From positions 1-35,026 of the forward strand of contig JAOPZY010000189.1 in assembly GCA_025963875.1 (NCBI GenBank): 35,026 nt of DNA, read 5' to 3'. The notes beneath the pieces are model-generated. The model made no database searches, was not told where the DNA came from, and saw only the letters and a list, made by a program, of their open reading frames with translations. The position numbers were made by a program, and so were the translations under genes. This document shows positions 28,992-32,691 of the stretch, in pieces (positions within the stretch are counted from its first letter, which is position 1; every line of letters starts with the position of its first letter). Source of the DNA: Actinomycetota bacterium. GTDB taxonomy: Bacteria > Actinomycetota > CADDZG01 > JAHWKV01 > JAOPZY01.

Positions 28992-29023
28992 CCTTGAGTA
29001 CTCCATAGCGAGCGCGAGCTATC
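28992..29023 (-). other. 3' arm of the 23S processing stalk (pairs with 34781-34811)
   Basis: CCTTGAGTACTCCATAGCGAGCGCGAGCTATC is a near-perfect inverted copy of GATGCTCGCGCTCGCTATGCAGTTCTCAAGG in the ITS. Confidence 0.8.
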
Positions 29024-29317
29024 GATCAAGCCCTCGGACGATTAGTACGGGTCGGCTGAACGCATTGCTGCGCTTACACCTCCCGCCTATCGACCCAGTC
29101 GTCTGCTGGGGTCCTTACCGGGTGTTACCCGTGGGAGCCCTCATCTTGGAGTGGGCTTCGCACTTAGATGCTTTCAGCGCTTATCCCTTCCGAACGTGGC
29201 CAATGAGCAGTGCCCTTGGCAGGACAACTCACACACCAGAGGTTCGTCCGTCCCGGTCCTCTCGTACTAGGGACAGCTCTCCTCAAGGCTCCTGCGCGCA
29301 TGGAGGATAGGGACCGA

Positions 29318-29592
29318 CACGATTGTTACCGCCCTCCGGCACCGTCGCCGACGGGGGGCCAGATCATTTCTGCCTGGCTCTGCATGTCGCCATGCAGGTC
29401 GGACCATATCTTCACCACCTTTGCGGGTGGTGTTCGGCATATGGTCTCTGAGGATTCCGGGCCCCGTAGAGCCCGGCCTTTCCTGCTGATTTTCCGCACC
29501 GCTCGGATTGTCACTGACCTAGTGGGGTCAGTACCTGCGGATACTCGGACGTTCCAGCATATAGCCGAATTTATAGACAGCGCGGTCAACTC
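29318..29592 (-). mobile_element. Group I intron L2604 (275 nt, ORF-less)
   Basis: Between GAGACAGU and UCGGUCCC; ends in G; IGS GACCG-C-GCUGUCU pairs with 5' exon AGACAGU (U.G at splice site) and 3' exon CGGUC; core UGCUGG/AAUCAGCAG, CAGAGACCA/GAUAUGGUC. Confidence 0.93.
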
Positions 29593-29603
29593 ACTGTCTC
29601 GCG

Positions 29604-29962
29604 CATGTAATTCCCCGCATTACTGCGGGCATAGACTATACCTCCACCCTATTTCTAGGGGCCGGCGTGTTATGGGATCCATAGTTTTGCCTTGCGGCGA
29701 TGATCCCATCCCTTCGTTGAGTTCCGAAGGAGTCGTTACGGGGGCCAGCAAACCCTTGCTACGCAGATGCTTCTCGACATCTGCGGCGAATATCCGCTTC
29801 GATTTCGAATAGTTTAGGGTCGAAAAGGCGCCAAATTGCAACGCCCTCTTGCTGGCCTTCCCTCGGTATTGCCCACCACCTTGCAGTTCGGCTTCAAGTG
29901 GGGGTTTCACCGATATGAGCCGGAGGACATCCAGGGATTACTCCCTGGAGACGCAGCGATCT
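29604..29962 (-). mobile_element. Group I intron L2593 (359 nt, IA-like core, no intact ORF)
   Basis: Between AGAACGU and CGCGAGAC; ends in G; IGS UCGCU-GCGU; core AUCGGUG/AAUACCGAG, GUAACGACU/GUAUAGUC. Confidence 0.92.
29740..29826 (-). pseudogene. Remnant of a single-motif LAGLIDADG (I-CreI-like) endonuclease C-terminus in P6 of L2593
   Basis: Reads FSTLNYSKSKRIFAADVEKHLRSKGLLAP then VTT, resembling the I-CreI C-terminus as I recall it (IAALNDSKTRKTTSETVRAVL); no LAGLIDADG motif left. Confidence 0.55.
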
Positions 29963-29981
29963 ACGTTCTAAACCCAGCTCG

Positions 29982-30019
<38 letters not shown>

Positions 30020-30055
30020 CCTGCTCCAGCCCCAGGATGCGACGAGCCGACATCG

Positions 30056-30365
30056 CACATGTCTCCACCGTTTCCGGTGGTGCAGACTATATCTTCACCC
30101 TCTCTGACCCAGAGTAGGGGTCGGCGTATTGTGGCGGCCATAGATTTGTCCCTTGCGGAACGAGACTCGCCACCTCGGCCTTGCGGCCTCAGTCGTTACG
30201 GGGTCACTTGCGGAAGCTGTGACATGGGTCTTTGCAGCGTGGTGCTGCGCTTCCGACAGACTTCCCACGGTATTGCCCACTGCCCTCCTGTGGGGTGACA
30301 GTTCAGGGGTTCACCGTTATAAGCCGATACCAATACGGCATCTCTGCCGCTACACCCCAATGTTG
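30056..30365 (-). mobile_element. Group I intron L2500 (310 nt, IA-like core, ORF-less)
   Basis: Between GGCACCU and CGAUGUC; ends in G; IGS ACAUU-G-GGGUG; core AACGGUG/AAUACCGUG, GUAACGACU/GAUAUAGUC. Confidence 0.93.
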
Positions 30366-30603
30366 AGGTGCCAAACCGGTCCGTCGATATGGACTCTTGG
30401 GACCGATCAGCCTGTTATCCCCGGGGTACCTTTTATCCGTTGAGCGACGGCCCATCCACATGGGACCGCCGGATCACTAGGCCCTGCTTTCGCATCTGCT
30501 CGACTTGTAGGTCTCGCAGTTAAGCTCCCTTGTGCCCTTGCACTCGACAGCTGATTGCCGACCAGCTTGAGGGAACCTTTGGGCGCCTCCGTTACAGTTT
30601 GGG

Positions 30604-31523
30604 CTCTCTGTTAGCACGGCAGCTTGTACTTCATCTCCTGGATCACATACGGATCCACGATACTCACGAAGCCATCGACTTCAGCGGATGGGATGTACAT
30701 CTGAAGCCCATCCACTTGCGCTCTCAAGTTCGTGCGAATCGAGAAGTCCCGCTCGAGGAACCACTGCAACATGGTTACCTCATCGGGCCGAAAGGCTTGC
30801 GTATTCAGATACAAGCCACGGCACGACCGAGACTTCCGGGAGCCGTCGTCCATGAACCACACCGCCAAGGCCAGCGGAGTCAAGGTGAGATCCGGGGGTA
30901 CAACCTTCCGCCCCTCATAGAAGCGGTTTCGGAACTCACCCAATTCGGGATGCGACACGGTGGCGAAGCCGACATTCATCGACTGCGTCCCAAGTCGATT
31001 CCCTTTGAGACGAGAGGCTGGCGGCGTCAGGACCCAGCTCGACCATTCCGAGTACTTCCAGGTGACGTACTCGATTTGGCGTACTGAGTGTTCTACCTTC
31101 AGTCGTGCCCAGCCCTGAGCATTCTGCTTTTCCAGATGCCCGTCTCCGAGAAGCAGCCCGACAAGGATCTCGCGCTGACGACTCGTAAGGAACAACTCCT
31201 GCTTCAGCCTTGCGATGGCCCTGGTGTTCATGGACCCCGTTGCCGTCTCGGGGTCATTTCTGCCCCGATCTGCACGTCGCCGTGCAGGTCAGACCATCCC
31301 ATCATCCGACCTCTCAGTCGGAGCCCTCGTTGTGGTCGTTGGGGTAGGCCAAGATCTGGCCCAACCTGCTGATTTTCCGCACCGCTCGGATTTTCACTGC
31401 CCACACCCCAAGTCTAATGACGAGGGGTGACAAAAAAGGGCTAGTACCGTCGGATTCTCGGGAGTTCCAGCATACGCCGAGGGTTTTATTTCACATGGTT
31501 ACCCATGATTCGCCCCCAAATTG
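30604..31523 (-). mobile_element. Group I intron L2262 (920 nt) carrying a homing endonuclease gene
   Basis: Between GGUCGCCU and CCCAAAC; ends in G; IGS UUUGG-GGGCGA; core UGCUGG/AAUCAGCAG, AACGACCA/GAUGGUC. Confidence 0.93.
30611..31231 (-). CDS. Double-motif LAGLIDADG homing endonuclease (LAGLIDADG_2 / I-SceI-like), 206 aa
   Basis: Motifs ILVGLLLGDG and LALAVWFMDDG, plus LYLNTQAF; uninterrupted ORF inside intron L2262. Confidence 0.93.
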   Translation of the reverse strand: MNTRAIARLKQELFLTSRQREILVGLLLGDGHLEKQNAQGWARLKVEHSVRQIEYVTWKYSEWSSWVLTPPASRLKGNRLGTQSMNVGFATVSHPELGEFRNRFYEGRKVVPPDLTLTPLALAVWFMDDGSRKSRSCRGLYLNTQAFRPDEVTMLQWFLERDFSIRTNLRAQVDGLQMYIPSAEVDGFVSIVDPYVIQEMKYKLPC

Positions 31524-31834
31524 AGGCGACCGCCCCAGTCAAACTACCCACCTGGCACTGTCCCTCACCCGGATCACGGGTGTGGGTTAGGGACCCAACA
31601 CATGCAGAGCGGTATTTCAAGGTTGGCTCCACCCGAACCGGAGTCCGGGCTTCACAGCCTCCCGCCTATCCTACGCAACACATGTCAAGTCCCAATACCA
31701 AGATGTAGTAAAGGTCCACGGGGTCTTTCCGTCCTTCCACGCGTAACGAGCATCTTTACTCGTAGTGCAATTTCGCCGAGTCCCCAGTTGAGACAGTGCC
31801 CAAGTCGTTACGCCATTCGTGCAGGTCGGAACTT

Positions 31835-32119
31835 CGTCTCAGTCCCCTGTTTCCAGGGGGACAGACTATGCCTTCATCTCGAACCACTTTGTTCGAGAGC
31901 CCGCGTATTGCTCTGTCCGTAGATTGACCGTGTTCCGGCCGGGACCAGAGCCTCACCCCGAAGGGATCAGTCGTTACGGGGCCATACTTCGCAATGAAGC
32001 AGAGGGCTTCCCACGGCATCACCCGCCGTCTATCGCCTCTCCTTGAAGGCAGCCGGTGTGGGCTCCGCCGTTATGAGCGGGTCTGCACACGGGATCGCTC
32101 CCGTGCAGGGCAATAATTC
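31835..32119 (-). mobile_element. Group I intron L1951 (285 nt, IA-like core, ORF-less)
   Basis: Between GUCGGGU and AAGUUCC; ends in G; GAAUU (P10) and GCCC (P1); core AACGGCG/AUGCCGUG, GUAACGACU/GCAUAGUC. Confidence 0.92.
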
Positions 32120-32139
32120 ACCCGACAAGGAATTTCGCT

Positions 32140-32439
32140 CGAAACGTCTGTTACGCGCCCTCATCTATCAGGCGGGGCTGGTCGTTTCCGCCAGCCTCCC
32201 TACGTCGCCGTAGGGTTCGGACCATCTCATCCTCTCTCCATCCATCTCGCAAGAGAGGGCCGGCGTATGGTCTCTGAGGGGTCACGAGGACTTCCCTGCT
32301 GATTGCCCGCACCGGACGGATTGTCACTTCCCAAAGGAAGTACCGCCGGATACTCGGGGTTTCCAGCAAACAGCCGGCTGCGCACCGCACCGTCACCGAT
32401 GCGGGGGGCAGCTCCCCTTGCCTGCCAAGGGGACCTTGT
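32140..32439 (-). mobile_element. Group I intron L1931 (300 nt, ORF-less)
   Basis: Between CUAAGGU and AGCGAAA; ends in G; short IGS GCU-GCC; core UGCUGG/AAUCAGCAG, CAGAGACCA/GAUGGUC. Confidence 0.92.
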
Positions 32440-32453
32440 ACCTTAGGACCGTT

Positions 32454-32691
32454 CGTCCAATTCCTTCATGTCGCCATGAGGCTGGACCATATCTTCACAG
32501 GCTCCTCTCGGAGTCTCGTGTCTGGCGTATGGCCTCTGAGGATTCCGGTCCCCTCACGAGGGCCGGCCTTTCCTGCTGATTGCCTGCACCGTCCGATTTT
32601 CACTGCCGGATAGGACCGGCGAGTACGGAGCGGATACCCAGGGTTCCCAGCATATAGCCAGATTTATTAACGTAACTACAACGGTCAACTT
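32454..32691 (-). mobile_element. Group I intron L1917 (238 nt, ORF-less)
   Basis: Between GUAACUAU and AACGGUC; ends in G; IGS GACCGUU-GUAGUUACG gives a 7-bp P10 and 9-bp P1; core UGCUGG/AAUCAGCAG, CAGAGGCCA/GAUAUGGUC. Confidence 0.94.

Follow-up and report, generated by a model that had tools for sequence, protein, structure and literature searches.

The 35,026-nt contig JAOPZY010000189.1 of an Actinomycetota bacterium, analysed over its whole length and hereafter referred to as the window, carries at its right end an rRNA operon on the minus strand (16S end, 23S and 5S), and the 23S gene of this operon, in a host outside the Candidate Phyla Radiation (CPR), is interrupted seven times by group I introns. 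The seventh insert, a 275-nt intron without a reading frame situated after position 2604 in Escherichia coli numbering (hereafter the L2604 intron), resembles the intron after position 1917 (L1917) of the same gene, and the locus raises the question of whether the L2604 intron is an offshoot of its L1917 neighbour or belongs to a lineage of its own. An initial annotation, made from the sequence, had favoured the former and regarded 2604 as an uncommon site. The comparisons described here indicate that the L2604 intron is very probably an endonuclease-less group I intron of an old lineage specific to position 2604; this lineage is already known, and the intron is an ordinary representative of it and no recent offshoot of L1917.

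Position and fold of the L2604 intron

The insertion sites were determined by removing the seven inserts and aligning the remaining 23S sequence to E. coli rrlH, which placed the inserts after positions 1917, 1931, 1951, 2262, 2500, 2593 and 2604. The upstream exon ends in U and the insert ends in G in all seven cases. At the last of these sites, the final base of the 5' exon (...CGCGAGACAGU) is U2604 and the first base of the 3' exon (UCGGUCCC...) is U2605, and the limits given in the initial annotation coincide exactly with the insert, which is read from 29592 down to 29318.

The insert matches the Rfam model RF00028 with 60.4 bits (cut-off 50; E-value 4.2e-13), although the span of the match (29380-29636) misses the true intron limits, the P1 of the model being set on the last hairpin of the neighbouring intron; three other inserts score 58.4 (L1917), 52.3 and 44.8 bits. 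The Rfam score, a P1 helix with a U.G pair together with a terminal G, and a P3-P9 core including the P3/P7 pseudoknot identify the insert, on sequence grounds, as a group I intron.

A secondary structure comprising P1, P3 to P9.1 and P10 was drawn on the window sequence (Table 1) and its pairs were counted on 12 L2604 introns of 275-517 nt, out of the 26 distinct complete L2604 introns recovered in this study; the 14 long copies were left out of this alignment. Standard pairs were found in 93.9% of the 909 cells, as against 31-39% when the partners were slid by one to three columns, a comparison that favours the drawn structure somewhat since it was taken from one of the aligned sequences. 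Compensatory (two-sided) changes were observed in 26 of the 77 pairs, those in P3, P5a, P6a, P8 and P9 being independent of the drawing bias, and the observed values were reached by none of 500 shuffles. P1, formed by AGACAGU and GCUGUCU with a U.G pair at the splice site, is paired at all seven positions and invariant in all 12 introns; the guide (GCTGTCT in the DNA) lies within the first 60 nt of all 26 introns, each of which also has a terminal G. Among the helices of the P7 region, helix 11 is paired in 99% of the cells and helix 12 shows compensatory changes in five of its seven pairs. P10 as drawn is paired in 74.6% of the cells, its first pair being found in just three of 11 introns, and GACCG occurs in the leader of four of the 26 L2604 introns and of 30 of 81 L1917 introns. 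The covariation supports the presence of a working ribozyme.

Position 2604 lies in helix 93, adjoining the peptidyl-transferase centre, and is two bases away (numbering checked) from A2602 of that centre. Because of this nearness an unspliced copy should not function, and this would account for the fold being so strongly conserved.

By analogy with the standard group I mechanism, the anatomy of the intron suggests the following pathway of splicing. The precursor 23S rRNA would fold the intron core P3-P9, and the guide GCUGUCU would form P1 with the exon end AGACAGU, leaving a U.G wobble where the exon is to be cut. The cut at the 5' splice site, after U2604, would be made by an external guanosine bound in P7, the 3' exon would be aligned, aided here by the pairing of GACCG with CGGUC (P10), and the terminal G275 would then enter the same pocket, with ligation of the exons into a continuous rRNA.

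Kinship, distribution and endonuclease loss

When 40 relatives were searched at the DNA level, the intron was recovered with unchanged junctions: the genome G004 aligns to all 299 nt of the query, both exon flanks and junctions included, with 80% identity, and in other genomes the two ribozyme halves are separated by up to ~480 extra bases. The class search gave hits at an E-value of 1e-12 or lower in 26 of 113 genomes, 19 of which, including the genome of the window (G000), have a hit that reaches the junction; complete L2604 introns in G100 and G106 bring the number to at least 21 of the 113. An even sample of the phylum gave matches in 43 of 401 genomes, with the junction reached in 19 (including G000), the class and phylum counts both being lower bounds, as many draft genomes are without assembled rRNA genes. 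Species genomes were further scanned with a 14-base 3'-junction pattern, which records presence in named taxa and not frequency: at least 23 of the 121 loci listed are true 23S L2604 junctions and 98 are chance matches outside rRNA. The titles among the matches listed include Acidimicrobiia, other Actinomycetota, Thermoleophilia-type genomes (Gaiellaceae, Solirubrobacterales), Candidatus Solincola, Candidatus Dormibacteria, Kofleriaceae (Myxococcota) and metagenome-assembled genomes (MAGs) of Acidobacteria and Pseudomonadota, and the related-record titles name Actinomycetota, not CPR, for introns of the window type. Ten-base exon anchors with two mismatches, also tried for the recovery of introns, gave mostly false introns and were replaced by spliced alignment.

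The 26 distinct complete L2604 introns, that of the window and 25 other sequences at the same junction, range from 275 to 762 nt and all have the guide GCUGUCU. The description of 2604 as an uncommon site does not survive these counts, and insertions at 2604 are also reported for CPR bacteria in the accessible text of a recent study (PMC11270868). The L2604 lineage is common in bacteria outside the CPR, above all in uncultured Actinomycetota.

Kinship was examined with a 128-row alignment of 83 distinct complete metagenomic L1917 introns, obtained from at least 120 loci of which 37 are without the 5' junction in the stretch examined, and 45 introns (at 1911, 1917, 1923, 1931 and 2604) of the window and its relatives; the L2262 intron was excluded because its open reading frame (ORF) region was misaligned. 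Core identity, measured over the ribozyme columns without the guide region, is highest between the window's L2604 intron and other L2604 introns (mean 76%; best 84%, in G004, G007 and G062), followed by the two L1917 introns of G000 and G007 (74-75%; 74% to the window's own), the L1923 and L1911 introns (69% each), the L1931 introns (67%) and the 83 metagenomic L1917 introns (mean 66%). In a 45-row tree (99/87) and in the 128-row tree (100/75) alike, the window's L2604 intron is sister to that of G004. Core identity, the full-length G004 match and the trees agree that its nearest relatives share its site. The L2604 introns constitute a distinct and widespread clade whose affinity to L1917 does not exceed that to the introns of other sites, the very outcome that the initial annotation had named as contradicting its proposal.

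The likeness noticed in the initial annotation is real in itself. The L1917 and L2604 introns are homologous members of one ribozyme family and each other's closest relatives within the window, and with 170 identities over 221 aligned columns (score 179) they align better than any other of the 21 intron pairs in the window, ahead of L1931 with L2604 (178 in 248) and L2262 with L2604 (193 in 256). They share the start (A/G)AGUUGACCG and all five quoted sequence blocks; their P1 halves differ as described, GUAGUUAC of L1917 pairing with the exon GUAACUAU and GCUGUCU of L2604 with AGACAGU, each having a U.G splice-site pair; and GACCG is complementary to the CGGUCC present in the two 3' exons, as the P10 reading requires. 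Most of these blocks, however, are core elements of the whole family, found in L1911, L1917, L1923 and L1931 introns as well, and are not special to the pair: GAAUCCUCAGAG is present in 22 of the 25 other L2604, 56 of the 83 metagenomic L1917, four of nine L1931 and all three L1911 introns, and AAUCAGCAGGAAAG in 17, 67, two and three of these, respectively. The leader AGUUGACCG, which may be counted in favour of a derivation of L2604 from L1917, is a minority state present in two of the 26 L2604 introns and ten of 81 L1917 introns, and one of these two L2604 introns is that of G043, which has no L1917 intron in its mapped 23S region. The sequence towards the 3' end of the L2604 intron (GGCAGAAAUGA..., terminating in GUAACA...G) recurs in the L1931 and L2262 introns of the window and not in its L1917 intron. 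Homology and the reading of P1 and P10 stand; the rarity of the site does not, and the derivation from L1917 is not supported. The resemblance to L1917 would mainly reflect the conserved core of one ribozyme family inserted at 1911, 1917, 1923, 1931 and 2604, and the shared exon motif CGGUCC would impose a P10 element on the introns at both 1917 and 2604.

The absence of an endonuclease gene from the window's copy finds its place within the same lineage. L2604 copies of 700-762 nt have an open frame in the P6 loop, that of G029 matching LAGLIDADG_1 (PF00961) with an E-value of 3.1e-17; copies of 400-517 nt hold decayed, broken but recognisable endonuclease remnants at the P6 place; and the 275-nt copy of the window has a short P6a hairpin in place of the gene, with no LAGLIDADG_1 match. 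The passage from gene to remnant to loss is the usual decay path of homing introns (the homing cycle). Such loss is common, and the missing gene does not exclude membership of the L2604 ribozyme lineage. The P6 loop of the lineage would once have housed a homing endonuclease gene of the LAGLIDADG_1 family that spread DNA copies to intron-less 23S genes; the deletion of this gene in the window's genome is complete, and the intron can now only be inherited or lost.

An endonuclease tree was built from 65 of 74 open frames of at least 120 residues, nine without the motif being dropped. The ten L2604 proteins form one clade (67/88), and a clade with support of 100/99 unites them with proteins of L1923 and L1931 introns and a single one of an L1911 intron, the 50 L1917 proteins lying outside it. 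The endonuclease frames of the L2604 and L1917 introns were also observed to begin within the ribozyme core, and translation of the conserved P4'/P6 block GACAAUCAGCAGGAAAG yields a peptide that recurs among them, ...DNQQER..., so that these bases serve RNA structure and protein alike.

Several observations weigh against the assignment to an old 2604-specific lineage or limit its reach. The 26 L2604 rows do not form one clade in the free trees: copies from two MAGs, titled Acidobacteria and Pseudomonadota, are placed close to L1923, and the pair of L1917 introns from G000 and G007 is placed within L2604; a single clade of the 26 is unrejected by the approximately unbiased (AU) test (p-AU 0.367). 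P10 pairing as drawn holds for only a part of the L2604 clade. A part of the comparison set, entering into several of the counts, consists of nine unpublished genomes (G007, G019, G035, G038, G065, G075, G082, G092 and G095), and the kinship with the published CPR insertions at 2604 is one of site and endonuclease family only. Finally, when contigs of three metatranscriptome runs and one DNA run were placed on positions 29000-30100, none of them bridged the L2604 intron with the exon sequence of the window itself.

The lone splice-bridging RNA contig, whose match to the window stops at 29317, continues into the exon sequence CGUGAGACAGU where the window has CGCGAGACAGU and was set aside as coming from another organism. 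Summed depth is very high in the exon bins and very low or nil in the intron bins, a contrast that is uninformative on splicing here because the exons are common to many organisms. RNA contigs of low depth (5-8) were seen at 29292-29394, 29393-29555 and 29600-29781, inside the L2604 and L2593 introns or over 3' junctions; these could be precursor RNA, excised intron or contaminating DNA.

The atypical L1917 intron and rival histories

The atypical partner in the comparison is the window's L1917 intron and not L2604, and if a switch of site took place, the trees hint at a direction opposite to that first proposed. The window's L1917 intron and its counterpart in the unpublished genome G007 might then be an L2604-lineage ribozyme that acquired an L1917 guide, L2604 being the source and not the derivative, a history that we consider possible if unlikely. 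The pair lies inside the L2604 clade in the 45-row maximum-likelihood (ML) tree (97/93 and 95/89), and in the 128-row ML tree it stands among L2604 introns, its position beside the G000 and G004 copies being weakly supported (58/79; enclosing groups 62/0 to 91/85). The L1917 query is found at full length in just two of the 113 class genomes (G000 and G007), and its cross-matches in 19 other genomes include, by coordinates, the L2604 introns of G004, G029, G038, G031, G035, G033, G005 and G007. The core of the pair scores nearly equally on the L2604 and L1917 profiles (differences of -4.3 and -3.6 bits), against median differences of -32 for the metagenomic L1917 and +39 for the L2604 introns that are inflated by some bits, as these rows belonged to their own profiles, and the block GUGAAGAUAUGGUCC occurs in 14 of the 25 other L2604 introns and in one of the 83 metagenomic L1917 introns. 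However, the AU test rejects a single clade of the 85 L1917 introns (p 0.435) no more than that of the 26 L2604 introns, and a tree constrained to unite L2604 with the pair is worse by 25 log-likelihood units, again without rejection (p 0.185). The pair is situated on a long branch (0.5-0.7), with attraction possible; next to G007, its closest single match in the core comes from a metagenomic L1917 intron (76%), and its P3-P5 segment is closest to L1917 introns. Diagnostic columns were tried for the placement of the pair and abandoned as providing too little, only three columns separating the L2604 and L1917 consensus sequences and the 'L2604' states being shared by L1931 and L1911.

The L1917 introns of G000 (238 nt) and G007 (219 nt; locus L027) were also observed to stop right after P9, without the P9.1/P9.2 extension and the GUAACA motif present in most of the 83 metagenomic L1917 introns. 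This 3' extension is common to the L1923, L1931 and L2262 introns, the other L2604 introns and most metagenomic L1917 introns, the L1917 intron of the window being without it.

A broader and rather doubtful conjecture would treat 1917 and 2604 as exchangeable homes of one ribozyme family, since (N)(N)CGGUCC opens the 3' exon at each of the two sites and one P10 element would suit both; the L1917 introns of G000 and G007 would be retargeted L2604 introns, and the loci L240 and L213 would represent further, independent switches. The metagenomic L1917 introns of L240 and L213 fall among L2604 in the 128-row tree, both on long branches.

It is very improbable that the likeness arose as a mosaic, with co-resident introns of one rRNA gene exchanging segments by gene conversion and no switch of site. 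Both genomes with this type of L1917 intron (G000 and G007) also hold an L2604 intron in the same gene, and the P3-P5 segment of the L1917 intron is nearest to L1917 (up to 90%), whereas for P5'-P6 and P6'-P7 the closest match is with an L2604 intron (91%). However, the best-matching L2604 intron for those segments is that of G043 and not the co-resident one, the whole-core identity ties G000's own L2604 intron with that of G043 at 73%, and with segments of ~40 nt the differences amount to a few bases.

The least probable history is the one first proposed, in which an L1917-type ribozyme was reverse-spliced into 2604, aided by the shared 3'-exon CGGUCC, with later adaptation of the P1 guide: beyond the in-window likeness it has in its favour a midpoint-rooted 128-row tree in which L2604, L1931, L1923 and L1911 lie within a grade of metagenomic L1917 introns, compatible with a deep L1917-like ancestor, but this grade may be a matter of sampling (L1917 introns from all metagenomes, the other sites from one class, and a root that is not inferred), and the core identities, by which metagenomic L1917 introns are no nearer than L1923, L1911 or L1931, as well as the endonuclease groups, point away from it. 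The assignment of the window's intron to an old lineage specific to 2604 is preferred to each of these histories.

Neighbouring introns and comparison with known systems

The features of the intron and of its neighbours are collected in Table 1.

Table 1. Coordinates of the L2604 intron, its structural elements and the other 23S introns of the window
Feature	Position	Strand	Evidence or remarks
L2604 group I intron	29318..29592	-	First base G at 29592, terminal omega-G at 29318; without endonuclease gene; rrlH alignment, RF00028 60.4 bits
Exon between L2593 and L2604 introns, 11 nt (E. coli 2594-2604)	29593..29603	-	Last 7 nt AGACAGU (29599-29593) are the P1 5' strand
GACCG, proposed P10 strand (intron nt 6-10)	29583..29587	-	Complementary to 3'-exon CGGUC, 29312-29316
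Internal guide GCUGUCU, P1 3' strand (intron nt 12-18)	29575..29581	-	Helix count, 26 of 26 introns
Core, P3 (nt 24-29 with 155-160) via P4, P5, P5a, P5b and P6 to P7 5' strand	29433..29569	-	P3, P5a, P6a compensatory; P4 invariant
P6 and P6a hairpin (nt 110-141), UACG loop	29452..29483	-	Place of LAGLIDADG_1 gene or remnants in longer relatives
P7 (nt 145, 147-153 with 185-192, A146 bulged), P3 3' strand, P8 (nt 161-180), J8/7	29401..29448	-	Predicted guanosine-binding centre
P9 hairpin CUGCAUG-GCGA-CAUGCAG	29380..29397	-	100% of cells paired; 3 of 7 pairs changed on both sides
3' extension: P9.1 hairpin with GCAGAAAUGAU loop, another hairpin, GUAACA...G	29318..29379	-	Alignments, helix count
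L1917 group I intron, 238 nt	32454..32691	-	Guide GUAGUUAC, P10 GACCGUU, without 3' extension; Rfam 58.4 bits
L1931 intron	32140-32439	-	rrlH alignment
L1951 intron	31835-32119	-	rrlH alignment
L2262 intron, 920 nt	30604-31523	-	Holds LAGLIDADG_2 ORF 30614-31288
L2500 intron	30056-30365	-	rrlH alignment
L2593 intron	29604-29962	-	rrlH alignment

Pairwise alignment separates the seven window introns into two ribozyme groups, those at 1917, 1931, 2262 and 2604 and those at 1951, 2500 and 2593. Exons of just 14, 20 and 11 nt lie between neighbouring introns of this region (29318-32691, minus strand). The only window intron with an intact reading frame is L2262, the product of which belongs to LAGLIDADG_2 (PF03161, E-value 7e-37); the frame is located 3' of the ribozyme core and not in P6, and the family differs from the LAGLIDADG_1 of the L2604 and L1917 relatives. 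In the relatives, introns of the same family as L2604 were found at two more helix-69 sites, after U1911 in three genomes (L033, L035 and L036, of G029, G033 and G037) and after U1923 in five (L036, L037, L038, L163 and L186), some of them with endonuclease genes. Spliced alignment also placed introns of 301-882 nt at ~2511 in L031, L174 and L177 (of G031, G085 and G065, respectively), the other relatives having theirs at 2500; these may represent an alignment ambiguity or a separate site.

Contigs of relatives that end or start exactly at 2604/2605 or inside the intron were encountered at L037 (G018), L029 (G019), L165, L166 and L175, which suggests that such introns break short-read rRNA assemblies. 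L2604-type introns break rRNA assemblies and can upset rRNA-based surveys, as illustrated by one relative whose contig ends exactly at 2604. The intron of the window is in itself a correct but ordinary find of little importance alone, and the use of its distribution and of the data set is modest; a family whose numerous copies, some with an endonuclease gene and some lacking it, are spread over five neighbouring rRNA sites nevertheless offers good material for studies of site switching.

Literature searches on group I introns in the 23S genes of Actinobacteria/Actinomycetota and on L2604 found no paper, and position 2604 is not mentioned in the main text of Nawrocki, Jones and Eddy (2018, PMC6125680) or in the accessible text of Haugen et al. 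(2007, PMC1995217); none of the terms sought occurs in the database paper PMC11835236. The window places the L2604 lineage in a host group for which no literature was found, the site 2604 itself being already in print in the accessible text of Tsurumaki et al. (2024, J Bacteriol, PMC11270868).

The L1931, L1923 and L1911 introns of the window's relatives share core blocks, the P6 endonuclease gene and the GUAACA...G 3' extension with the L2604 family, while the L1931 and L1923 introns differ from it in insertion site and guide. The main text of Nawrocki et al. (PMC6125680) assigns archaeal LSU/1931 and LSU/1923 introns to subgroup IB4, and by analogy with this LSU/1931 assignment the family of the window may be labelled IB4. 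The label differs from that of Haugen et al. (PMC1995217), whose accessible text lists bacterial L1931 introns from Thermotoga, Simkania and Synechococcus and bacterial L1917 introns from Synechococcus sp. C9 and Thermotoga subterranea (Table 1 therein) and calls their L1917 and L1931 introns similar to IC1. The 83 metagenomic L1917 introns have the same family core as the L2604 intron, a P10 complementary to the same CGGUC and, in ten of 81 cases, the leader (A)AGUUGACCG; they differ in site, guide and mean core identity, and their endonucleases form a separate group. The spread of group I introns to new ribosomal DNA (rDNA) sites by reverse splicing is described by Bhattacharya et al. (2005, BMC Evol Biol, PMC1299323), in the text accessible, for fungal nuclear rDNA; the mechanism, which employs short intron-exon pairing, is that invoked in the initial annotation, and the present comparisons show no such event for L2604.

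The closest published counterparts are the insertions in CPR/Patescibacteria 23S genes, as described in the accessible part of Tsurumaki et al. (PMC11270868). The host of the window differs in being outside the CPR and its copy in having no endonuclease gene, and the likeness noted is that of site and endonuclease family. The CPR insertions at 2604 occupy the same E. coli-numbered site as the window's intron, this being among the CPR 23S sites whose insertions mostly encode LAGLIDADG_1, the same family as in the longer relatives of the window's intron, and the CPR 23S genes, with many introns at 1917, 1931, ~1951, 2593 and 2604, present the same setting as the 23S gene of the window.

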